Below are positions 7,482-61,789 of a stretch of 64,000 bases of DNA, one piece after another. The notes under the pieces are model-generated. The model saw nothing but the letters and a program-made list of their open reading frames with translations. It was not told the DNA's origin and ran no database searches. The stretch comes from an uncultured Bacteroidaceae bacterium (GTDB lineage: Bacteria > Bacteroidota > Bacteroidia > Bacteroidales > GCA-2748055), in NCBI GenBank assembly GCA_964539395.1, contig CAZIIU010000003.1, positions 24,353 to 88,352 on the forward strand, written 5' to 3'. Position numbers and translations under genes: made by a program. Positions within the stretch are counted from its first letter, which is position 1, and each line of letters begins with the position of its first letter.

Positions 7482-8903
7482 TTACATCTTCAACTTCTTG
7501 TCCAACTCATCGATCTGGATTCTGAATCGTTTGTCAGTTTCGATTAGATTATTTATCGTTTTACACGCATGCAGTACTGTTGCATGATCCTTGCCTCCGA
7601 TCTGTGAACCGATTGTAGCAAGACTGGATTTCGTATAATTCTTTGAAAAGAACATTGCAACCTGCCTGGCCTGAACTATCTCACGCTTCCTGGTTCTGCT
7701 CTGCAGCTGTTCAAGTCCGATGTTATAGAAACTGCATACAACTTTCTGAATGTAATCGATCGAGACCTCCCTGTTCGTGTTCTTAATGAGTTTGTCGATC
7801 ATCTCCCTTGTAAGATCCAGGGTGATCTCCTTCTTGTTGAGTGTCGACTGGGCAAGCAGTGAGATCAGAGCACCCTCCAGTTCCCTGATATTATCTGTTA
7901 TGTGTGTTGCGATATATTCTAGCACCTCTTCGGGCATTTCTATACCATCGTTATAAGTCTTTTTTACAAGAATGGCCATCCGGGTTTCGTAATCGGGAGC
8001 CTGAAGATCTGCCGACAACCCCCACTTGAACCTGCTGATTAATCTCTGTTCAAGTCCCTGTAATTCAACCGGGGGTTTGTCTGATGTAAGTATTAGCTGT
8101 TTACCCGACTGGTGGAGATGATTAAAAATATGAAAGAAGGTGTCCTGGGTTTTCTCCTTTCCGGCAAACTCATGAACATCATCAATGATCAGAAGATCAA
8201 TCATCTGGTAAAAATGAAGAAAATCATTCTTGTTGTTGTTTCTGATCGCATCAACAAATTGTGTCTGAAACTTGTTGGCATTGACATACAATACCGTTTT
8301 GTCGGAGTACAGGTTTTTTACCTCTATTCCAATTGCCTGGGCAAGGTGGGTTTTTCCTAATCCGCTGTCGCCATATATGAGGAGAGGATTAAATGCGGTT
8401 CCCCCGGGGTTATTGGCTACGGCATATCCGGCGGAACGTGCCAGCCGGTTGCACTCACCCTCTACAAAATTTTCAAATGAGTTACCGGGATTAAGTCTCG
8501 GATCAATATCCAGTTTTTTGATCCCGGGTATAACAAAAGGGTTTTTTATCGAGTTGTCAGGAGAATCAAGTGGGACTTTTACAGGCAGGTTTTTTACCTC
8601 TTTTGAACTTTTTGCCGGAAATTTAACCGTATATGGTTTATTGTTGTTGTAGGAATTGTTCTGCATAACAACATTATATTCCAGCTTTGCTCCATCCCCA
8701 AGTTCCTTGATCAATACCTTTCGCAACAGGTCAAGATACTGTTCTTCAAGGTACTCGTAAAAAAACGGACTCGGGACCTGAATGGTTAATACATCCTGGT
8801 CGAGTTTTAAGGGTATGATCGGCTCAAACCATGTTCTGAAACTGATGGAAGGAACATTATCCTTGATTACATTGAGGCAGTTGTTCCAAACACGTTCATG
8901 CAT
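7482..8903 (-). CDS. dnaA: Chromosomal replication initiator protein DnaA
   Basis: It has the Walker A motif GDSGLGKTHL, the box VII/sensor motifs, and a C-terminal DNA-binding helix region with RQVAMFF and GGKDHATVLHA. Confidence 0.95.
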   Translation of the reverse strand: MHERVWNNCLNVIKDNVPSISFRTWFEPIIPLKLDQDVLTIQVPSPFFYEYLEEQYLDLLRKVLIKELGDGAKLEYNVVMQNNSYNNNKPYTVKFPAKSSKEVKNLPVKVPLDSPDNSIKNPFVIPGIKKLDIDPRLNPGNSFENFVEGECNRLARSAGYAVANNPGGTAFNPLLIYGDSGLGKTHLAQAIGIEVKNLYSDKTVLYVNANKFQTQFVDAIRNNNKNDFLHFYQMIDLLIIDDVHEFAGKEKTQDTFFHIFNHLHQSGKQLILTSDKPPVELQGLEQRLISRFKWGLSADLQAPDYETRMAILVKKTYNDGIEMPEEVLEYIATHITDNIRELEGALISLLAQSTLNKKEITLDLTREMIDKLIKNTNREVSIDYIQKVVCSFYNIGLEQLQSRTRKREIVQARQVAMFFSKNYTKSSLATIGSQIGGKDHATVLHACKTINNLIETDKRFRIQIDELDKKLKM

Positions 8904-15323: not shown

Positions 15324-15593
15324 TTATTTCATCATATCGGTTACATATGGTAGCAAAGCAAGGTGACGGGCACGCTTAATTGCTACGGATACTTTTCTCT
15401 GGTACTTTAAAGAGGTGCCTGTGAGCCTGCGGGGAAGAATTTTTCCCTGCTCATTCAGGAATTTTTTTAAAAACTCAGGATCCTTATAATCAATGTATTT
15501 GATCCGGTTTTTACGAAAACGGCAATACTTTTTCTTTTTGATCTCTACGGTTGGGGGTGTCAGATACCTGATTTCTGAATTTGCTTGTGCCAT
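15324..15593 (-). CDS. rpsR: 30S ribosomal protein S18
   Basis: The motifs [27 protein letters not shown] and [11 protein letters not shown] are present. Confidence 0.95.
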
Positions 15594-15596
15594 GAT

Positions 15597-15956
15597 CTAT
15601 TCCTCCTTTGCTTTTTCGGTTTCTGCTGCTTTTCTTGCTCTCTTTTTCTCCGCATATGCTACTGCATGTTTATCCATCTTCATTGTAAGAAAACGAATGA
15701 TCCTCTCGTCACGTCGAAACTCTGTTTCGAGTTTTCCGACAAAATCACCTTCAACGCGAAATTCGATCATGTGGTAAAACCCGGTGGATTTCTTCTGGAT
15801 GGGATAGGCCAGTTTTTTCAGGCCCCAGCTTTCCTCATGGACCACATCGCCCTTCGCGGACTCGATCAGGTCCCTGAATTTTTCAACCGTTTCCTTCATC
15901 TGGGTCTCAGACAAAACGGGAGTTGCAATGAAAACGGTTTCATACTGATTTAACAT
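15597..15956 (-). CDS. rpsF: 30S ribosomal protein S6
   Basis: The motifs [10 protein letters not shown] and [12 protein letters not shown] are present. It is the first gene of the S6-S18-L9 operon. Confidence 0.95.
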
Positions 15957-15991
15957 AGTTTATTTGTTTTTTAATGGTTAAAAATCGACCG

Positions 15992-15999
15992 CAAATGTA
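15992..15999 (-). promoter_or_regulatory. Candidate Bacteroidota -7 promoter box for rpsF
   Basis: The minus strand reads TACATTTG, which matches TAnnTTTG. It lies 36 nt upstream of the rpsF ATG. Confidence 0.35.
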
Positions 16000-16126
16000 G
16001 GTACTTTTTTTTCAAAAAAAAAATGAAACCTTTGTCGATATTTAAGTAGTTCAGCACATTAATCATTGAACATCATACGAACTGATCAGATCGAATATGT
16101 TAAATGATTCACTAATCCAATTAATT

Positions 16127-16306
16127 ATGAACCAATCAAATCATTACAAAATGCATGAACTCAACACAGCTGAGTTGTGCAGCATTGAAGGCGGTATTTG
16201 GAGAACCCTGATGCAGGCCGGAATTACCCTGCTAATCAGCGAATGGGATTCGACCAGGCAGGCTGCGGTTGATGCATGGTGCGGGGTTTACGATCCCCCA
16301 AAGTAA
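16127..16306 (+). CDS. Double-glycine-leader peptide 1 (bacteriocin-like precursor, 59 aa)
   Basis: The leader MNQSNHYKMHELNTAELCSIEGG ends in GG and is followed by a 36-aa core. The ORF-track entry starts at 16097, but the internal ATG at 16127 aligns with the paralogous leader of the next ORF. Confidence 0.6.
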   Translation: MNQSNHYKMHELNTAELCSIEGGIWRTLMQAGITLLISEWDSTRQAAVDAWCGVYDPPK

Positions 16307-16347
16307 AATAATAAACTGTATATTGTAACACTTAATTCTTAAAAATT

Positions 16348-16527
16348 ATGAAAACCAACCAAAATCAATTACATCACCCTGAGATGAGTTATACTGAACT
16401 GATTTCAACTTCCGGCGGGGGGCAAGCAGACGATCTGGCTTATAATCTGACTTACGCTCTGCTAACAACAAATCCGGTGTTCTGGATGGCCAAATACAGT
16501 AAATGGGCAATTACAGCCGTATTCTGA
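16348..16527 (+). CDS. Double-glycine-leader peptide 2 (bacteriocin-like precursor, 59 aa)
   Basis: I found this ORF by hand translation; it is not in the ORF track. It reads MKTNQNQLHHPEMSYTELISTSGG followed by GQADDLAYNLTYALLTTNPVFWMAKYSKWAITAVF. The leader is alignable with peptide 1. Confidence 0.55.
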   Translation: MKTNQNQLHHPEMSYTELISTSGGGQADDLAYNLTYALLTTNPVFWMAKYSKWAITAVF

Positions 16528-16564
16528 CAACCAGTAGATGCACGTTTAACTAAACCAATACATA

Positions 16565-16714
16565 ATGAAAAAGCAGAAGGTTTTATTGATTGTCCTGTCC
16601 GTTCTTGCCGCAGGAGTACTCCTTGTTTTGATCCTTAACTGGGACGCTTCCAAAAAAGGAGCAAAAGATGCCTGGGAAGGAAAATACGAGCCTCCAGTGG
16701 AAAAAACCGAATAG
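16565..16714 (+). CDS. 49-aa single-pass membrane peptide (possible immunity or accessory peptide)
   Basis: Hand translation gives MKKQKVLLIVLSVLAAGVLLVLILNWDASKKGAKDAWEGKYEPPVEKTE. It lies directly downstream of the two GG peptides on the same strand. Confidence 0.4.
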   Translation: MKKQKVLLIVLSVLAAGVLLVLILNWDASKKGAKDAWEGKYEPPVEKTE

Positions 16715-16740
16715 GAAAAATACGTGGGTCTGATAAAATG

Positions 16741-16771
16741 GCAACCGGTTTTTTTTTAAAGAACCGGTTGC
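16741..16771. repeat. Perfect 10-bp inverted repeat with an 11-nt spacer
   Basis: The arms are GCAACCGGTT and AACCGGTTGC, with spacer TTTTTTTAAAG. There is no trailing T run, so it is not a clean terminator. It lies 58 bp upstream of the dnaX start. Confidence 0.6.
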
Positions 16772-16828
16772 ATTCCGCTTTATACTTTTTTCTTTATTAT
16801 TATCTTTACGATCTGATTCAGCAAAAGT

Positions 16829-17938
16829 ATGGAGAGTTTTATCGTATCTGCACGGAAGTACCGGCCCGATAGTTTTAGAAGTGTCGTAGGGCAGGCAGCA
16901 ATTATCTCCACACTTAAAAATGCCATTAAAAACGGGCAGCTGGGTCATGCCTACCTGTTCAGTGGTCCGCGCGGTGTCGGCAAGACTACATGCGCGAGAA
17001 TCTTTGCAAAAACCATCAACTGTCAAAATCTTGGTGAGAATATTGAAGCATGTGATACCTGTGATTCATGCACTTCGTTTAATCAAAGACGGGCATTTAA
17101 TATCCATGAACTTGATGCGGCGTCAAACAATTCCGTGGATGATATCAGGTCGCTGACCGAGCAGGTGAGGATTCCTCCTCAGACAGGTAAATACAGTGTA
17201 TACATCATTGATGAGGTACATATGCTCTCCTCCCAGGCATTTAACGCTTTCTTAAAAACATTGGAGGAACCTCCAGCACATGCAATATTTATTCTTGCCA
17301 CCACCGAAAAGCATAAGATCATCCCAACAATCCTTTCGAGGTGCCAGATCTATGATTTTAACAGGATACGTACCGACGATACAGTCGAATACCTGAAGTA
17401 TATCTCGGAAAAAGAGAATATTACATATGAGGAGGATGCATTACATGTAATAGCGCGGAAGGGTGAGGGGGCCATGCGCGATGCACTCTCTATCTTCGAC
17501 CAGGTAGTAAGCTTTTCTGAAAATAAAATTACCTATGCCTCTGTTATTGAGAATCTGAATATCCTGGATGTTGAGTATTATTTTTCCTTGACCAATGATT
17601 TTATTGCCAATAATGTATCAGGTGCACTTCTAACCTTCGATGAGATACTGCAAAAGGGTTTTGATCCACGTAATTTTATCGGTGGACTGGCATCACATTT
17701 TCGTGACCTGATGGTATCGAAAGATCAGTCAACCGTCGTGCTTCTGGATGCCGGGGCTTCTGTAAGGGAGCAATACCTTAAACAGTCCTCCCGGGTACCT
17801 GTAGAATTCCTCTATGGTGCACTCGAAATATGTAATGAAACAGACCAGCAATTGCGGTTGAGTAAAAACCAGCGACTTACGATAGAACTGGTACTCGTCA
17901 GACTTTCGAACCTTACTGAGGTTCAAAAAAAAAAATAG
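16829..17938 (+). CDS. dnaX: DNA polymerase III gamma-like product of dnaX (0-frame, 369 aa, clamp-loader domains I-III)
   Basis: It has the Walker A motif GPRGVGKTT, a CxxCxxC zinc module, DEVHML and the SRC motif (ILSRCQ). The frame ends at TAG immediately after an A11 run. Confidence 0.9.
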   Translation: MESFIVSARKYRPDSFRSVVGQAAIISTLKNAIKNGQLGHAYLFSGPRGVGKTTCARIFAKTINCQNLGENIEACDTCDSCTSFNQRRAFNIHELDAASNNSVDDIRSLTEQVRIPPQTGKYSVYIIDEVHMLSSQAFNAFLKTLEEPPAHAIFILATTEKHKIIPTILSRCQIYDFNRIRTDDTVEYLKYISEKENITYEEDALHVIARKGEGAMRDALSIFDQVVSFSENKITYASVIENLNILDVEYYFSLTNDFIANNVSGALLTFDEILQKGFDPRNFIGGLASHFRDLMVSKDQSTVVLLDAGASVREQYLKQSSRVPVEFLYGALEICNETDQQLRLSKNQRLTIELVLVRLSNLTEVQKKK

Positions 17939-18624
17939 CCGATCAGAAAGAGAAAGAAGTCCGCGAGCAATCTACGGGTAAAGAGGAATCTTCCTCCAAC
18001 AAAGATCCAAAGCAATCTACGGGTAAAGAGGAATCTTCCTCCAACAAAGATCCAAAGCAATCACAATCCGTTGACAAACAATCTGAAATATCTGCTTCTA
18101 TAGAGAACGGAAAGGAGAACCAGGTGGTCCATACCAGGTCAGTTTCAATAAAGGGTGTACTGAAAGGCAGGCCAAAGGAGATACCTGTCGATGATTCGGA
18201 GACGGCTGAAGACGATGTGGTGGCGTCAGCGGATGCCTCCTTAGGGGGGAGCATTCAGATCACTGAGGCGGATATTCAAAAGGCCTGGAAGGAATTTGCC
18301 CGCTCAGTGGAGAAAAGTCATCCAAGACTCTACAACACCCTTAGACAACAAGTTCCAAACATGACCGCAGACGGAAGAATTCAGATCAATCTAAATACCA
18401 ATGCGCAACGGGAATACTTTATCCAGAAGATTAAACCTGAGATCATCAGGTATCTCAGGAAGAATCTGGCTGATGTGGATTATGTGATAGAGGCCGGCCT
18501 GATCGAGAGTCAGAATGGCTCCAAAAAGATATATACCGATCAGGATAAACTGGATTACCTGATAAGCAAAAACCCGGAACTTGGAAAACTAAAAAGCAGA
18601 TTCAATCTTGATTTTGATCAGTAG
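17920..18624 (+). CDS. dnaX: Tau-specific C-terminal region of DnaX, read in the -1 frame relative to 16829..17938
   Basis: The -1 frame is open from 17920 to the stop at 18624 and has no ATG before 18124. It encodes a low-complexity linker (QSTGKEESSSNKDPK twice) and then a conserved-looking C-terminal domain. Confidence 0.75.
   Translation, partial: GSKKKIADQKEKEVREQSTGKEESSSNKDPKQSTGKEESSSNKDPKQSQSVDKQSEISASIENGKENQVVHTRSVSIKGVLKGRPKEIPVDDSETAEDDVVASADASLGGSIQITEADIQKAWKEFARSVEKSHPRLYNTLRQQVPNMTADGRIQINLNTNAQREYFIQKIKPEIIRYLRKNLADVDYVIEAGLIESQNGSKKIYTDQDKLDYLISKNPELGKLKSRFNLDFDQ
17925..17935 (+). promoter_or_regulatory. dnaX: A11 slippery tract (candidate -1 ribosomal frameshift or transcriptional slippage site)
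   Basis: The 0 frame reads CAA AAA AAA AAA TAG. It contains A_AAA_AAA heptamers. The -1 frame is closed by TGA at 17917-17919 and opens exactly at this tract. Confidence 0.5.
17968..18057. repeat. Perfect 45-bp tandem duplication inside the tau linker
   Basis: CAATCTACGGGTAAAGAGGAATCTTCCTCCAACAAAGATCCAAAG occurs twice back to back, followed by a partial third start (CAATCACAATCC). Confidence 0.9.
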
Positions 18625-28146: not shown

Positions 28147-29826
28147 GTGAAAAATATTCTGTATGCAATAACTGTGGCGTTACTCCTCCTGCTGAAAGGA
28201 CCCGGCGTAAGTGCACAGGTTAGTTACGGGGGCAGGCCCCTTATGAATGCGTCTGATTTCAATGCAGAAAAGGTAATGTACCTTCTGCCACGTGAAGACC
28301 CGCTGCTGCTGGACGGACTCCGTAAATCGACCTATAACAATAATAAAAAGGTGTTGATTTTCGCCACCGAACGACCGGTGGATATTTCACCGGAATACAA
28401 TGGCGAGTGGGTCGTTAACGGGGGAACGCATATCTGGCGGGTGCATCTTATATCACCGGAAGCATACTCACTTGGGGTGCACTTCTCTGAGTTTGCACTT
28501 GAAAACGGGGCTAAATTGTTTGTATACGACCCCGGCGGACGACACATTAAAGGTGCATTCACTAAAGAAAACAACAAGGAATTTGGTCAATTCTATGTCG
28601 GACACCTGCCCGGCAACGAGATGATTATTGAACTGCAGACCAACGATCCCGGACGCTACTACGGTAACCTGCGGATCGGCATGCTTTCTCATGCTTTCCT
28701 GCCGGTTTACGCCGAGAAAAGCACTGATGATATCGGATTGGGCACATCACAGGACTGCGAGATCGATATTAATTGTTCGGAAGGGCAGGAGTGGCAGATA
28801 CTAAAACGGTCGGTGGTTCATATTGCTACAACAGCTCAGTTATGTACCGGGGTATTGGTTAATAATACTGCTTACGACGGTAAACCCTATATTCTTACAG
28901 CTGAACATTGTATCAATAATGATTTCTATGCCGAAAGAAGTGTCTTTTACTTCGGCTATGAGAACAGTGAATGCTTTTTAAATGACGGCAATAAAAACCA
29001 GTCGGTGAGCGGCTCATCGCTGATATCCACCGGCGATTCGATCGATTTTACCCTGGTACGGCTTACAAGGATCCCCCCGGGGGAATTTAATGTTTATTAT
29101 GCCGGTTGGGATGTACGCAAACAGGGACATCTGAGCTCAGTGACACTACACCATCCCAATGCCGACGCCATGAAGATATCGTTCGATCATGACCCAACCG
29201 TTGAAGCAGTAGCTGTACCGGGCGACCTGAGAGATTACATTGTGGAATCGAACTACAGGATCGCAAAATGGGACATAGGTTCAACGGAAGGGGGCTCATC
29301 GGGTTGTCCGCTGTTTAATTCATCCAAAAAGCTAATCGGGGTGTTGTCAGGCGGACTCGCATTCTGCGGCGATTCAATCGGTTATAATGCCGAGACCGGA
29401 AGGGTGTTGTTTTCACTTAACGGGAACGAGAATGACTTTTTTTCAAAGATGCATTTCGCATGGGACTACTATTCAACTGCCAGTAAGCAGTTGAAGTACT
29501 GGCTCGATCCGGTTAATGCCGGACAGCAGGTGATCGGCGGACTTACCTCGAAGGAGGTAGGAGTGAAAGAGGAGCTTTCAGCCAGAGGTGAATTGCAGAT
29601 TTTTCCAAATCCTGCTTCCGGGTTTTTCACAATCGAATTGCCTGTATATAACGGTAAACAGATCAGTATCACCATGTACGACTTAACCGGCAGGAGGGTC
29701 TACGCGCGGAAGCATACATCTGCTTTCCCGGTAACAGTTGCAGCAGGTGAACTACCAACGGGCATATATCTGTTAAAGGTTGAAGCTGACGAAAAAAGTC
29801 TGTCGGGAAGGGTGGTGCTGGAGTGA
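28147..29826 (+). CDS. Secreted S1-family (lysyl-endopeptidase-like) serine protease with T9SS C-terminal sorting domain
   Basis: A signal peptide is present. The catalytic His lies in TAEHC and the catalytic Ser in GGSSGCPLF. The C-terminal ~80 aa (IFPNPASGFFTIEL...GIYLLKV) are typical of a Por/T9SS CTD. The start codon is GTG. Confidence 0.75.
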   Translation: MKNILYAITVALLLLLKGPGVSAQVSYGGRPLMNASDFNAEKVMYLLPREDPLLLDGLRKSTYNNNKKVLIFATERPVDISPEYNGEWVVNGGTHIWRVHLISPEAYSLGVHFSEFALENGAKLFVYDPGGRHIKGAFTKENNKEFGQFYVGHLPGNEMIIELQTNDPGRYYGNLRIGMLSHAFLPVYAEKSTDDIGLGTSQDCEIDINCSEGQEWQILKRSVVHIATTAQLCTGVLVNNTAYDGKPYILTAEHCINNDFYAERSVFYFGYENSECFLNDGNKNQSVSGSSLISTGDSIDFTLVRLTRIPPGEFNVYYAGWDVRKQGHLSSVTLHHPNADAMKISFDHDPTVEAVAVPGDLRDYIVESNYRIAKWDIGSTEGGSSGCPLFNSSKKLIGVLSGGLAFCGDSIGYNAETGRVLFSLNGNENDFFSKMHFAWDYYSTASKQLKYWLDPVNAGQQVIGGLTSKEVGVKEELSARGELQIFPNPASGFFTIELPVYNGKQISITMYDLTGRRVYARKHTSAFPVTVAAGELPTGIYLLKVEADEKSLSGRVVLE

Positions 29827-32722: not shown

Positions 32723-33811
32723 ATGCAGCAGGAGGATTTGGAATATAGTATGCGACTGAAGGATGTATGGTTAGGCTATAAACCTGGCGAGCATCTGGTT
32801 CGTTCTGTGAATGCCTCAATTAGTCCGGGCGAGATGATCGCTCTGGTGGGACGAAATGGTACAGGGAAGAGCACTTTGCTGAGAACTATCGCCGGTATAC
32901 AGCCGGCGGTGCAGGGTGATGTGCTTCTCAATGGTCGTTCCATTGGAAGAATACCTCCGCGCGAGCGATCCCTGTTGCTTTCCTTTGTCAGCACCGGCAG
33001 CACTTTCACGGAAAACCTGACCGTTTTTGAGATGGTATCGCTCGGACGTCACCCTTACACGAACTGGTGGGGAGCGCTTCGTGAATCCGACAGGAGAAAG
33101 ATCACTGAATCGATCCGGTTTGTTGGTATGGAAAAGTTCCTGGAGGCAAGTGTCAACCGTCTGAGCGACGGGGAACGTCAACGGGTTATGATCGCCATGG
33201 CACTTGCACAGGACACACAATTGATGGTCCTCGATGAGCCAACTGCCTTTCTTGATATCCCAAACCGGATCGGCATTGTAGAGGTGCTTTACCGGCTGAA
33301 GGAGGAGGGACATTCGGTAATTTTTTCCACACACGATTTCGACAATGTGTTCAGCTATGCGGACAAGATTTGGGCAATTTCTGACAGACAATTGCTTGAA
33401 GGTTCTCCTGAGGACCTGGGTTTGAATGGTGCCTTTGAAAAACTGTTCAACGAGTCGAAAGTTGCTTTTGATTATGAGAACCTGAGATTTGTACGCCGGA
33501 GGGTGCCGGAAAAGCAGATTGTGTTAGATGCACGGGATGAAACTGTTAATCATTGGACTGCCAGGTCTTTAGAGCGTATAGGATATCAAGTACTACCAGT
33601 GAATAAGGTAAAAGACATGAACTATGACAGCTTGCCCGGGAAGATGGAGCAGCCCGGAATCAGTCTGGAAGATTCCGGTTCGAAAGAGAATATGGCAGTG
33701 CGCGCAGGGAAGAATGAACAGGGATACTGCTGGTCACTCGTAGAGGAGCAGAATGAAATTGAGTTCAAATCGCTGTATGAATTGACCGGATATTTGCGCC
33801 GAATGAAATAA
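32723..33811 (+). CDS. ABC transporter ATP-binding protein with ~110-aa C-terminal extension
   Basis: It has the Walker A motif GRNGTGKST, the signature LSDGERQR and the Walker B motif LMVLDEPT. The extra C-terminal domain has unknown function. Confidence 0.9.
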   Translation: MQQEDLEYSMRLKDVWLGYKPGEHLVRSVNASISPGEMIALVGRNGTGKSTLLRTIAGIQPAVQGDVLLNGRSIGRIPPRERSLLLSFVSTGSTFTENLTVFEMVSLGRHPYTNWWGALRESDRRKITESIRFVGMEKFLEASVNRLSDGERQRVMIAMALAQDTQLMVLDEPTAFLDIPNRIGIVEVLYRLKEEGHSVIFSTHDFDNVFSYADKIWAISDRQLLEGSPEDLGLNGAFEKLFNESKVAFDYENLRFVRRRVPEKQIVLDARDETVNHWTARSLERIGYQVLPVNKVKDMNYDSLPGKMEQPGISLEDSGSKENMAVRAGKNEQGYCWSLVEEQNEIEFKSLYELTGYLRRMK

Positions 33812-58158: not shown

Positions 58159-58695
58159 TTACTTATAAACCAAATCAGAAATAGACGACAAGTACTTTTC
58201 ATCGACAGCATCAAACTGATCTGTTACGACAGCGTCGACATCAAGGACAGATCGGATTGTGCCGTTTTTATCTTTAACAGGCAGGGCTATTTCGGACTTT
58301 GACCGGGAATCGCACGCGATGTGGCCGGGAAATTGCATGACATCGGGTACAATTACCGCTGAATCCCTTGTTATTGCGGACCAGCAAACACCTTTACCTT
58401 TCTCAAGCTCCTGGCAGGCTACAGGTCCCTGGTATGGTCCGACGATCAGTCTGCCATCCTCAAGCAGGTAAAAGCCTGTCCAGAAAAAATACTCCATCTT
58501 ATGATGCAGCACCGCTGCAATTGTGGCCATCCGGGAAAGGGGAGTGCCCGGTTTGCTGCACAGCTCCTCCAGCTGCACATAGATTCTGCGGTACCGCCCC
58601 TCTTTTTTAATCGTCCCCTGTTTATTTTTCAGCAAGATTATCGAGAATTTTAAGTTTCTCCTCAAGAAGTTTAACCTTTTTCTCGAGTTCAGCAT
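58159..58695 (-). CDS. GAF-domain protein, free methionine-(R)-sulfoxide reductase-like (MsrC/YebR family)
   Basis: WTGFYLLEDGRLIVGPYQGPVAC..GKGVCW..GHIACDSRSKSEIALP aligns with YebR. The ORF start at 58695 overlaps the upstream gene by 74 nt. A TTG at 58635 would give a more typical 158 aa. Confidence 0.8.
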   Translation of the reverse strand: MLNSRKRLNFLRRNLKFSIILLKNKQGTIKKEGRYRRIYVQLEELCSKPGTPLSRMATIAAVLHHKMEYFFWTGFYLLEDGRLIVGPYQGPVACQELEKGKGVCWSAITRDSAVIVPDVMQFPGHIACDSRSKSEIALPVKDKNGTIRSVLDVDAVVTDQFDAVDEKYLSSISDLVYK

Positions 58696-61600
58696 ATTTC
58701 TCCTTCTCAGCTTTCAGTTGCTCGATTTCGGTTTGCTGCTCTTTGAAAGCCTGTACGAGAACGGCTGTGATCTTAGCGTAGTCCACACTTTTGTACCCGT
58801 CTTCACCGGTAGTTACTAACTCCGGAATTACGCGTTCCACTTCCTGGGCAATAAATCCGATTTGCCGGTTATCGTTAAACCGGTTGTTAGCTCCAAACTG
58901 ATCCGGTTTCCAGTTGAAGTAAACACCATTTAATGCTTCAACCAGGGAAATGGCATTTTTAATCGAAAGTATATCCCGCTTATAACGTACGTCAGAAGTA
59001 TAGCCGTACGAATCAGCAGCTACAGCAGCATTGAATCTAAGTGTATTTGCAGAAAAATTACCGTAAATCAATGCGTTGTTGTAGTTATCCGTCCCGGTAT
59101 AATTGTTTGAAACAATCAATCTGTGGTCATTTACATCAGGTTCATTATATCCGGCATAACGTCCAATAAAAACATTGTAGTCTCCTGTACATGCCCTTCC
59201 TGCTGCAAGCCCCACATAAACATTATTTGAACCAGATCCACTGTAATAACCAGACTCAGCTCCGAGAAATGTATTGTTGCTGCCAGTGTTGTTAGCTCCT
59301 GCAGAGTATCCTAAATAGGCCTGATTAACTCCACTTGTATTACTGGATCCTGCAAGATAACCAACCATGGTATTGTATCCGCCAGTGGTATTCTGCCCTG
59401 ATCTGTAACCAACAAAGGTATTATAATAGGCAGATTGATTGGACGTTCCGGAACTTGGTCCGATGTAAACATTATACTGACCTGTTGTTGTGCTGTTTCC
59501 GGCCAAATTACCTATTCCAATATTGTTGCTTCCCGTTGTGTTATTTGACCCTGCCTCCACCCCGATGTATACGTTATCGCTTCCGGAAGCTGAAGTTCCG
59601 GAAAAACCTGCTCTGTAACCCAGGTAAGTGTTTCTCATACCGGTTGTACTGTTAAATCCTGAATAATACCCAAAAAAGGAATTATTGCTTCCGGTGGTGT
59701 TTCTGAAGCCGCAATTGGGACCAAAAAATGAGTTATTCTCACCGGTAGTATTATAATAGCCTGCCTGAAATCCATAGAAAGAGTTCCATTTTCCTTCAGT
59801 ATTGTATCGTCCGGTTCTATAACCAAAAAAGGAATTATAGGTTCCTGTTGTATTATTCTCACCACTTAAATACCCGACAAATGCATTGTACTGTCCGGTT
59901 GTATTTGCATTTCCACTGCTTGTCCCAATAAAAACATTCCTGTATCCAGTAGTATTGCTGCTTCCGGCACTATTACCTATAAACACATTAGCATATCCGG
60001 AGATATTTGCAACCCCGGTATTATCACCTATAAATACGTTGTTGCTGCCTGATGCATTATTTCCTGAATACCCGGCATTGTAACCAATGTATGTATTGTA
60101 CTGTCCGGTCCTGTTGTTGTGACCGGTCTGATATCCGATAAAGGTATTGTATGAAGGATCGCCGGTTACGCCATTGCCGGCATGATAGCCGCTCCTGTAT
60201 CCAAAATAAATGTTATAGCTGCCGTCGGCCGTATTATTACCACTTGCATTACCCAGAAAGATATTATTTACACCTGAAGTGTTACTGTAACCGGCACTTA
60301 ATCCTATAAAAACATTGTTACCACCGGATGTATTTCTGTAACCTGAAGTAGATCCCATGAAAATATTCTCACTGCCTGTCAGCCCGGTTTCACCGCCAAA
60401 TCCTGCTCTCCATCCCAAAGCAAGGTTGTTTTTTCCGGTGGTGGTATTGTATCCCGACTGGTATCCGAAGAATGAATTGTAAAAGGTGGCGTTCCTGTAC
60501 CCGGCCTGGTAACCCACAAAGGTGTTATAATAGCCTGAAGTACTTTGAAAACCCGCCTGGTTACCGATATATACATTACCATACCCGCTTGTGGTGCTGT
60601 ACCCGCTAGAGTTGCCGATAAATGTGTTCTCATTGGCGTCTAAATTAGAGTATCCCGCGAATCGCCCCAGAAAGATATTTTCGCTCCCGGTGGTGTTGCT
60701 GATCCCTGCCTGGTAGCCGATAAATGAATTGTACAATCCCCTGGTAATATTTGCACCTGCATCCTGACCGATCAGGTAGTTTTCGGGGGTGAGTGACATC
60801 AGTTGACTGATCTCCGATTTGGTTCCTGAACTAAAACCGCCAACAGCAAAGCCGCCCTTCACCCCTTTCTCAAGGCTGGTTGTGTCGAACAGGATACTGG
60901 TCTCCTTACTGCTTACCTCCAGGAAATTAAAAGTCGGTCCTTTCGAAGTTGAACTGTACCCACCAACAGCAAAGCCTCCTTTCACTCCCTTCGTTGCAGG
61001 GACGTCCGGAACGTAAATACGGACACTGTCAGGTGTAATCCGCAGATACTCCTGTGTTACTCCCTTACTAACACTGTTGTAACCACCAACTGCAAAGCCT
61101 CCCTTTACCCCCTTCTTATCCTCATCCACATATACCATTACGCCATCATTAAACACAGCAAATACCGGGTTCCCAAGGTCATTTCTCACCTCGAACAGTG
61201 GAGTCTCAGTCTGTTCGGATTTTGGAATTATTCCAACCGTACGTGCTGTAACAGCGTTTTCACCTTCAACTTCCCATCCGCTTATGTTCCTGATTCTGTT
61301 GTCAATGTTTATGGTCGTATGGCCAGGATCCTTTGAAAGCCCCAAAATACCGTCGTTAAATATAAGCTCCTGTATCTCATCGGCTGGATCGCTGTTTGCG
61401 GCCTGTAGTGCAAATGGAACCGATACCAGCTCACTGAAGCCCATAGCAGTAAAACCATCGCCTGCATCAACTTCCACCCCCATTTCATACACACCTGAAC
61501 TCCAGTCAATGCCTTCGAAGGAGCCTGCACTTCCAGTGCCATTGATGGCTCCGGGCTCACCCACCTGCAGAGCAAAATGGCCGAGAGAATTAGTGTTAAC

Positions 61601-61789
61601 AGGATGTTCCTCCTGCCACACAATATTTTCATTTTGATAAATGCTTATCCTGACGGTTAAGGCCTTATCAATCAATGCATTTCCGTCGGAGTTTCTGGCT
61701 ACAGCCTGGTAATTGAATTTCCGCGGAGCCTGCGCAAATACTCCGCTTACCAGAACTGAAAAGACTATAAGCAGTAGATTTTTTCTCAC
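58622..61789 (-). CDS. Secreted tail-fibre-like repeat protein with C-terminal intramolecular-chaperone (peptidase S74-like) domain
   Basis: A signal peptide and a conserved N-terminal domain are followed by 3 copies of the KGVKGGFAVGGY module (41-aa period). Then come about 600 aa of a degenerate ~14-aa repeat (N-x-F-x-G-Y-x-A-G-x-x-N-T-T-G). The C-terminus has SDVRYKRDI...IGFIAQEVE...VDY followed by a coiled coil. Confidence 0.75.
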   Translation of the reverse strand: MRKNLLLIVFSVLVSGVFAQAPRKFNYQAVARNSDGNALIDKALTVRISIYQNENIVWQEEHPVNTNSLGHFALQVGEPGAINGTGSAGSFEGIDWSSGVYEMGVEVDAGDGFTAMGFSELVSVPFALQAANSDPADEIQELIFNDGILGLSKDPGHTTINIDNRIRNISGWEVEGENAVTARTVGIIPKSEQTETPLFEVRNDLGNPVFAVFNDGVMVYVDEDKKGVKGGFAVGGYNSVSKGVTQEYLRITPDSVRIYVPDVPATKGVKGGFAVGGYSSTSKGPTFNFLEVSSKETSILFDTTSLEKGVKGGFAVGGFSSGTKSEISQLMSLTPENYLIGQDAGANITRGLYNSFIGYQAGISNTTGSENIFLGRFAGYSNLDANENTFIGNSSGYSTTSGYGNVYIGNQAGFQSTSGYYNTFVGYQAGYRNATFYNSFFGYQSGYNTTTGKNNLALGWRAGFGGETGLTGSENIFMGSTSGYRNTSGGNNVFIGLSAGYSNTSGVNNIFLGNASGNNTADGSYNIYFGYRSGYHAGNGVTGDPSYNTFIGYQTGHNNRTGQYNTYIGYNAGYSGNNASGSNNVFIGDNTGVANISGYANVFIGNSAGSSNTTGYRNVFIGTSSGNANTTGQYNAFVGYLSGENNTTGTYNSFFGYRTGRYNTEGKWNSFYGFQAGYYNTTGENNSFFGPNCGFRNTTGSNNSFFGYYSGFNSTTGMRNTYLGYRAGFSGTSASGSDNVYIGVEAGSNNTTGSNNIGIGNLAGNSTTTGQYNVYIGPSSGTSNQSAYYNTFVGYRSGQNTTGGYNTMVGYLAGSSNTSGVNQAYLGYSAGANNTGSNNTFLGAESGYYSGSGSNNVYVGLAAGRACTGDYNVFIGRYAGYNEPDVNDHRLIVSNNYTGTDNYNNALIYGNFSANTLRFNAAVAADSYGYTSDVRYKRDILSIKNAISLVEALNGVYFNWKPDQFGANNRFNDNRQIGFIAQEVERVIPELVTTGEDGYKSVDYAKITAVLVQAFKEQQTEIEQLKAEKEKYAELEKKVKLLEEKLKILDNLAEK

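Follow-up and report, generated by a model that had tools for sequence, protein, structure and literature searches.

We observed that three small genes, here named pepA, pepB and pepC, lie between the divergent housekeeping genes rpsF and dnaX in a 64,000-nucleotide stretch of DNA from an uncultured Bacteroidaceae bacterium (assembly GCA_964539395.1, contig CAZIIU010000003.1; the whole stretch is hereafter called the window). They are best explained as a three-gene operon of a rare, previously undescribed family of double-glycine (GG) leader peptides. The first two open reading frames (ORFs), pepA (ORF1, positions 16127-16306, plus strand) and pepB (ORF2, 16348-16527, plus strand), each encode a 59-aa precursor; the former has a 23-aa double-glycine leader and a predicted mature peptide of 36 aa, the latter a GG(G) leader and a predicted mature peptide of 34 aa. 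The third, pepC (ORF3, 16565-16714, plus strand), encodes a leaderless protein of 49 aa that is predicted to cross the membrane once. An earlier note on this DNA had described the three consecutive plus-strand ORFs and suggested a two-peptide bacteriocin-like or signalling module with an immunity candidate. Its coordinates were reproduced and all three ORFs are genuine genes; the suggestion itself is supported by the conserved GG, by coding constraint, by the insertion of the cassette between conserved genes, and by linkage to exporter genes in distant relatives (L090-L092, with an HlyD-like gene at L097; L numbers are our labels for the compared sequences). The spacer that holds the cassette measures 872 bp, a correction of the 870 bp given before.

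To assess coding constraint, we compared the window with the orthologous regions L082 and L087, a set in which dnaX is 87-90% identical. Across the three lineages, the ratio of nonsynonymous to synonymous substitution rates (dN/dS) was 0.14-0.17 for pepA, 0.10-0.15 for pepB and 0.09-0.12 for pepC, at dS values from about 0.75 up to saturation. For dnaX and rpsF, dN/dS was 0.02-0.05 and dS ranged from 0.55 up to saturation. The DNA alignment places substitutions inside the ORFs mainly at third codon positions. All three ORFs are real genes under purifying selection, and the coding constraint on which the earlier suggestion had been made to depend is strong in the orthologous spacers (dN/dS 0.09-0.17). 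We take 16127 as the correct start of ORF1 because the upstream ATG at 16097, which would give a longer form and had been included before, lacks conservation: at that place the orthologue in L082 reads TAA in frame. The start contexts of the two peptide genes are as similar as first described, with AATTATGAA common to pepA and pepB.

Word-indexed searches returned an 82%-identical homologue of ORF3 and a 71%-identical homologue of ORF2, on contigs with the order rpsF/rpsR/rplI, three small ORFs, dnaX. The corresponding protein search with ORF1 retrieved only ORF1 itself, and homologues surfaced only through ORF3, ORF2 and profile searches. The synteny shared around the orthologous cassettes is wider still and includes dnaA, LptD and SecA. 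By synteny with L082, the minus-strand ORF at 7482-8903 of the window is dnaA, which puts the cassette within ~8 kb of the probable replication origin region. Four other lineages have the cassette next to rpsF and/or dnaX (L082-86, L087-89, L093 and L099); L093 carries rpsF, pepA and part of pepB, and L099 carries pepA, pepB, pepC and dnaX.

Within the genome collection compared, the nearest species representatives that have no cassette (L002-L005; dnaX 68-72% identical) keep the divergent rpsF-dnaX arrangement with a spacer of 156-211 bp, and no homologues of the three peptides were found in them. L002 and L003 share the rpsF-proximal block with its minus-strand TAnnTTTG box, and L002 also shares the -7 box of dnaX. 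Given these short spacers and shared promoter blocks, the cassette is, as judged by sequence comparison, a clade-specific insertion of ~650-700 bp between two retained promoters, which answers the question about the rpsF-dnaX spacer that the earlier note had raised. In the window's clade the triad alone was inserted, and it was inherited there by at least five lineages. A search for flanking repeats that would mark a mobile element gave only A/T-run matches, and neither a tblastn search of plasmids nor a scan of viral contigs produced matches to the cassette. Its GC content (41%, versus 45% for the window) is not anomalous.

Homologous small ORFs with a conserved GG position are present in relatives, and the GG is invariant in the alignments (11 of 11 pepA and 9 of 9 pepB sequences). 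Leaders of PCAT substrates typically span roughly 15-30 residues and end in Gly-Gly (or GA/GS) immediately ahead of the mature peptide, as those of pepA and pepB do. The leader rule described in PMC7018657 consists of hydrophobic residues at -4, -7, -12 and -15 and an acidic residue at -8. The pepA leader complies with it fully, with M-15, L-12, E-8, L-7 and I-4 in register with G22-G23. Among 461 Met-started small-ORF variants of the window, only ORF1 contains the strict pattern [LIVMF]x3[DE][LIVMF]x2[LIVMF]xGG; of 100 shuffled windows, one contained it. In its predicted mature part, PepA has an amphipathic helix followed by the tail EWDSTRQAAVDAWCGVYDPPK; an AlphaFold2 model of ORF1 showed a single long helix and was uninformative (predicted local distance difference test score 63.9).

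The pepB leader is 24-25 aa long, and the predicted 34-aa mature peptide reads QADDLAYNLTYALLTTNPVFWMAKYSKWAITAVF. The double-glycine leader of ORF2 stands as first described, whereas its position at residues 23/24 does not, the family-invariant pair being G24-G25. The more likely cut site, as read from the alignment, is after G25, between ...SGGG and QADD. Two pepB relatives have A-G-G at this place, so that only the invariant pair can be the cut site there. Counted from G23-G24, the leader has canonical M-12, E-8 and L-7, but T at -4. The predicted masses are 4090.04 Da for PepA (36 aa) and 3924.98 Da for PepB (34 aa), or 3982.00 Da for a 35-aa PepB.

The cores of the two peptides are indeed unrelated. 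Class IIb bacteriocins have conserved GxxxG-type helix-packing motifs in both peptides; by inspection of the alignments, pepB keeps an A-x3-A motif (ADDLA) in seven of nine sequences, and no conserved small-x3-small motif was found in the 11 pepA sequences. No conserved Cys pattern was found either, and C18 and C52 of the window's peptides are not conserved. Taken together, we consider it very probable that PepA and PepB are GG peptides of the kind handled by peptidase-containing ATP-binding cassette (ABC) transporters (PCATs).

The product of pepC begins with MKKQK, continues with a hydrophobic helix of ~20 residues and ends in the tail WDASKKGAKDAWEGKYEPP. Its best 17-residue Kyte-Doolittle window scores 3.2, compared to 0.96 for pepA, and this strongly hydrophobic helix agrees with the single-pass membrane peptide predicted before. 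The earlier note had missed the homology between the core of ORF1 and ORF3 (BLASTP, 45% identity over 33 residues, E 2e-10), which makes the immunity candidate a paralogue of the first peptide that has no leader. Both share a common build, a hydrophobic or amphipathic helix followed by W-D-x-T/S-K/R-x-A/G-A-x-D-A-W-x-G-x-Y-D/E-P-P, a tail motif that can also be written EW-D-x-T-K-x-A-A-x-DAW-x-G-x-Y-x-PP. PepC is thus, by its sequence, a leaderless and predicted membrane-anchored paralogue of mature PepA. The pairing of a GG-leader form with a leaderless form recurs in distant lineages, which argues that the duplication is old, and pepC follows pepB in all eight loci with enough sequence.

To define the size of the family, we searched a three-sequence profile exhaustively against 1.84 billion protein cluster representatives. 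This gave 13 proteins at E <=0.001, five of the GG-leader pepA type and eight of the leaderless pepC type, and all 13 carry the same tail motif. Independent lineages with homologues number more than 10, and one of the contigs concerned has a GC content of 72%. When metagenomes were scanned with the ORF2 alignment, three contigs of one clade (L090-L092) emerged with the gene order pepA, pepB, pepC, a 45-aa ORF (in L090 and L091), HlyD and a C39-peptidase ABC exporter, the last running off the contig end. Pfam matches were HlyD_3 (3.7e-12 and 1.9e-13), Peptidase_C39 (8.6e-33) and ABC_membrane (7.4e-49). In the complete loci HlyD is present, and so is the C39 ABC exporter if the contig extends that far. 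Upstream, a divergent response-regulator receiver gene adjoins the complete loci L091 and L092. In L097, pepA, pepB and an uncalled pepC precede an HlyD-like gene, and L096 holds pepA-pepB. The 72% GC contig (L094) has a pepB-like gene followed by a pepA-like gene, the only case of reversed order. pepA and pepB are adjacent in every locus where the flanks allow this to be seen.

Two additional features were seen in these exporter-linked loci. The fourth small ORF, between pepC and HlyD (L090 733-870, L091 1320-1457), encodes 45 aa with a single hydrophobic helix, e.g. MQKHKPKHRNTTLLQLIVAGVVVLLLIILLNDPFGIVTGLMDALK; a tblastn search for a counterpart in the window found none (best E 2.6). High conservation also marks the stretch that separates pepA from the divergent response regulator (L091 380-560, L092 60-265); it contains repeated TTTC(C/T)GG-like motifs, TTTCCTGA, TTTCCGGC, TTTCTGGC and TTCTGGAA, which are candidate regulator binding sites. 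This motif is absent upstream of pepA in the window.

Genes of the pepC type also occur alone. In L100, one lies beside two CPBP/Rce1-like genes and unrelated GG peptides, ~4 kb downstream of HlyD and a PCAT. In L102, another belongs to an array in which GG-peptide genes are interspersed with genes for membrane, CPBP and DUF3267 proteins. CPBP/Abi-type and small membrane proteins are the usual immunity genes in such arrays, and unpaired copies are regarded as 'orphan immunity' genes. We read pepC as immunity-like because its lone copies stand in arrays with CPBP/Abi-type and membrane genes; PepC is a candidate immunity or decoy protein. The PCAT locus of L100 (4242-5841 of a 146-kb contig) has a further peculiarity: the C-terminus of an HTH_11 protein and that of a shorter ORF read ...KELSY(R/K)EAQKVNGG followed by FQN(L/F)AYLVNF, that is, a GG motif with a 10-residue tail, and may represent a regulator-fused or pheromone-like GG peptide.

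The family differs from described systems in several respects. The closest likeness is to class IIb bacteriocins (lactococcin G, plantaricin EF/JK, lactobin A/cerein 7B, TIGR03949), in which two different GG-leader genes of similar size stand side by side in one operon and are directly followed by a small membrane-protein gene and, in complete loci, by an HlyD-type accessory protein and a C39-peptidase ABC exporter, with a regulator nearby. Unlike in class IIb, there is no significant similarity outside the leader, the mature peptides are anionic or neutral, the window holds no exporter module, and the immunity-like protein is paralogous to one of the two peptides, for which we know of no precedent in that class. 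In class IIb, both peptides are needed together for antimicrobial activity and the mature peptides are cationic and permeabilise membranes. Class IIb is Gram-positive, whereas the producers recovered here seem mostly to belong to Gram-negative Bacteroidota or to other environmental bacteria.

Bacteroidetocins likewise come from Bacteroidota, carry a GG leader, are unmodified and rely on a peptidase-ABC exporter (Coyne et al. 2019, PMC6671954). They have leaders of 15-16 aa and mature parts of ~42 aa with at least two Cys, are single peptides with no immunity protein, and their genes adjoin those of a membrane protein, usually a thiol oxidoreductase, and an exporter (PMC6671954). The cassette has leaders of 23-25 aa and two unrelated peptides with a paralogous membrane protein. 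Membership is ruled out by leader length, by the lack of conserved Cys and by the absence of an oxidoreductase in the recovered contexts.

Searches of profile hidden Markov models for double-glycine leaders, which the earlier note had recommended, gave matches below the curated cut-offs throughout. The best scores were 15.7 bits for TIGR03949 (cut-off 21.5), over the pepA leader, and 12.4 for PF10439 (cut-off 27.1). The strongest and most recurrent of these sub-threshold matches were to GG-leader families (TIGR03949, BlpC, TIGR01847, lactococcin G-beta and PF10439) and covered the leader only. Profile searches of the PDB found no relatives, and a search of a literature library for the family motifs gave no match.

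The intergenic region upstream of the cassette (15957-16126, plus strand, between rpsF and pepA) presumably carries a non-canonical promoter or operator that belongs to the cassette. The rpsF promoter box is retained on the minus strand at ~15993-16000, and the minus-strand box TACATTTG is conserved in four lineages. In the DNA alignment of the window, L082 and L087, sequences are nearly identical at 15977-16026 and 16046-16090. The second of these is a conserved non-coding block of 45 nt, TTCAGCACATTAATCAkTGAACA ... AACTGATCAG, kept in all three; it contains the 8-bp palindrome CTGATCAG at 16082, which is also kept in L093. On the plus strand upstream of pepA we found no TAnnTTT[GA] box (the Bacteroidetes-type -7 box, TAnnTTTG). 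The lack of a canonical -7 box, together with a conserved block that includes the CTGATCAG palindrome, suggests regulated expression of pepA, and the block may be an operator or an alternative-sigma promoter.

At the other end, a terminator-like hairpin (16741-16771, plus strand) closes the three-gene unit 5' of the retained dnaX promoter box, TATCTTTA, at ~16800. The perfect 10-bp inverted repeat reported there before is present and folds well. It extends to 14-nt arms at 93% complementarity, and the segment 16712-16800 has a minimum free energy of -25 kcal/mol (z = -4.1 versus shuffles). The hairpin is conserved in L082 and L087, where an A-to-G change keeps a G-U pair. A simple promoter and terminator scan gave nothing above shuffles; the hairpin escaped it, since stem and T-run are not immediately adjacent. 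An Rfam search of 15500-17300 returned chance-level matches only.

Combining these observations, we propose a mechanism of two-peptide antagonism with immunity by PepC and export in trans, and we hold this full mechanism to be moderately probable. The operon would be transcribed from its own non-canonical promoter and end at the 16741-16771 hairpin. A PCAT/HlyD system with its genes at another site in the genome would recognise the leaders and cut after the GG, in pepA after G23 and in pepB most likely after G25, and the peptides of 36 and 34 aa would be exported. PepA and PepB would act jointly on cells nearby, much as the two partners of a class IIb bacteriocin do. PepC would sit N-in/C-out, showing PepA's conserved tail on the outer face of the inner membrane, and would protect the producer, plausibly by occupying the partner or receptor site of PepA. 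A more specific form, in which PepC protects by molecular mimicry, is a tentative proposal that we rate as possible rather than probable. Its tail, EWDxTKxAAxDAWxGxYxPP, would compete with incoming PepA for PepB or the receptor, and the triad would be fixed near the origin and served in trans by an unlinked exporter. We know of no class II system with immunity by such mimicry.

Several observations weigh against a classical bacteriocin. There is no PCAT or HlyD gene within the window, as the earlier note had already stated. Assignment of the ORFs of at least 500 aa (LptD, SecA, LigA, ArgS, BatD, a PAS/GAF protein, a type IX secretion system (T9SS) protease and an S74-domain protein) revealed none, a single ABC ATPase (32723-33811) is encoded and its partner is a FecCD permease, and tblastn of a relative's HlyD and C39-ABC proteins against the window gave nothing (best E 0.9). 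No family member reaches the curated threshold of any bacteriocin model in Pfam or NCBIfam. Throughout the family, the mature peptides are predicted to be anionic or neutral (pepA -0.2 to -3.2, pepB +1 to -2), and a positive charge is usual among the class II bacteriocins that have been characterised. With the invariant GG as reference, pepB of the window's clade has S at -4 and its E-L pair at -9/-8. The block at 16046-16090, in place of a canonical -7 box, suggests regulated expression. Inheritance of the cassette is vertical, its place among housekeeping genes is fixed and selection on it is purifying; bacteriocin genes tend to be strain-variable, and such fixed inheritance is atypical for them. 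Finally, the response regulator beside the complete loci fits a signalling role equally well. Because of the charge, the fixed inheritance, the off-register pepB leader, the signs of regulated expression and the regulator, a signalling role keeps an appreciable probability, and so does a role after loss of export.

An orphan state of this kind has a precedent, in that GG peptides with no closely associated PCAT have been documented (PMC7018657). The orphan GG peptides of Streptococcus pneumoniae are encoded with no adjoining exporter and are served in trans by a PCAT at another locus, and PCATs with shared substrates are documented as well (ComAB/BlpAB/RtgAB; PMC7018657). That organism is Gram-positive and its exporters and regulators are known, whereas the trans exporter proposed here is hypothetical; the orphan cassette described here is, moreover, fixed between two core genes across several species-level lineages.

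The peptides could instead be exported signals, i.e. quorum-sensing or competence-type pheromones that are processed by a PCAT and sensed by a two-component system, with PepC as a membrane-bound modulator or a sensor partner that shares the ligand tail. We consider this somewhat unlikely. In addition to the anionic or neutral charge, the regulator gene and the lack of a canonical housekeeping promoter box before pepA, which is compatible with regulated expression, the strong conservation of the hydrophilic tail and the stable vertical inheritance within the clade fit a signal. Sub-threshold matches to the BlpC pheromone model were also found in four of nine pepB and two of 11 pepA sequences, but it is the leader alone that produces them. 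In the window, the surroundings of the cassette contain neither a histidine kinase nor a regulator, and pepC-type genes are found among CPBP/Abi-type immunity-like genes in multi-bacteriocin islands. Mature peptides of 34-38 aa with long hydrophobic helices are longer than characterised GG pheromones, which also weighs against a signal.

Less probable still is that export was lost or never co-transferred, and that the products are inner-membrane or cytoplasmic proteins with unprocessed leaders, e.g. envelope or stress modulators near the origin. The absence of an exporter from the window, the position beside core genes, fixed in at least five lineages ~8 kb from dnaA, and a selection that is purifying rather than diversifying are all consistent with this idea, as is the loss of the hydrophobic -4 residue from the pepB leader in the window's clade. 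However, the GG pair and the canonical pepA leader residues are still conserved in that clade, which is unexpected for a leader that is no longer recognised, and the leader columns are no more degenerate than the core columns.

That the genes encode precursors of a modified peptide natural product (ribosomally synthesised and post-translationally modified peptide, RiPP) is very improbable. GG leaders occur on lanthipeptide and other RiPP precursors as well, and one pepB homologue weakly matches the lichenicidin A2 model. This match is confined to that single sequence, no Cys is conserved, and no modifying enzyme lies beside the triad in L082, L090-92, L097, L099 or the window, where the absence of such an enzyme from the whole 64 kb had been pointed out before. 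Chance reading frames in a long spacer, suggested by the small size of the ORFs and their lack of database names and Pfam matches, are refuted by dN/dS values of 0.09-0.17 at saturated dS and by homologues in more than 10 independent lineages with conserved gene order.

From Gram-negative, mostly uncultured bacteria not many unmodified peptides with a GG leader are known, and the pepABC operon would add a rare family of predicted exported peptides that is novel in sequence. The feature most worth following up is an immunity candidate that is the leaderless, membrane-anchored paralogue of one of the peptides, which suggests immunity by mimicry and is directly testable. An orphan GG cassette that is stably inherited apart from its exporter could also serve the exporter-assignment problem raised in PMC7018657. 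Should the peptides be signals or inactive, interest drops to that of a small conserved operon.

The cassette is flanked on the left by rpsF (15597-15956, minus strand), the first gene of the rpsF-rpsR-rplI operon, whose counterpart in the syntenic L082 matches Pfam Ribosomal_S6. On the right lies the N-terminal ORF of dnaX (16829-17938, plus strand). This 0-frame ORF encodes 369 aa and ends at a TAG directly after a run of 11 A (17925-17935). From the A-run onwards the -1 frame remains open, across a tandem repeat of 45 nt x 2.2 (17966-18062) and on into a 166-aa ORF (18124-18624), which is the C-terminal part of tau (DUF8439). The same A11 run, TAG and -1 continuation are found in dnaX of L082, and a run of A10-A13 lies near an early dnaX stop (367-374 aa) in L003, L012, L013, L015, L017 and L024. 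Other Bacteroidota have one dnaX ORF of 525-655 aa. Given the A-run, the early stop and the open -1 frame, it seems that full-length tau requires either a -1 frameshift or slippage during transcription and that a gamma-like product is the default. A gamma-like default with tau made by frameshift is the reverse of the situation in E. coli.

Elsewhere in the window, a 1055-aa protein (58622-61789, minus strand) ends in a Peptidase_S74 (endosialidase chaperone) domain, of the sort typically found in self-cleaving surface proteins or in proteins that resemble phage tail fibres. Furthermore, the plus strand at 28147-29826 encodes a trypsin-like protease with a T9SS C-terminal sorting domain.

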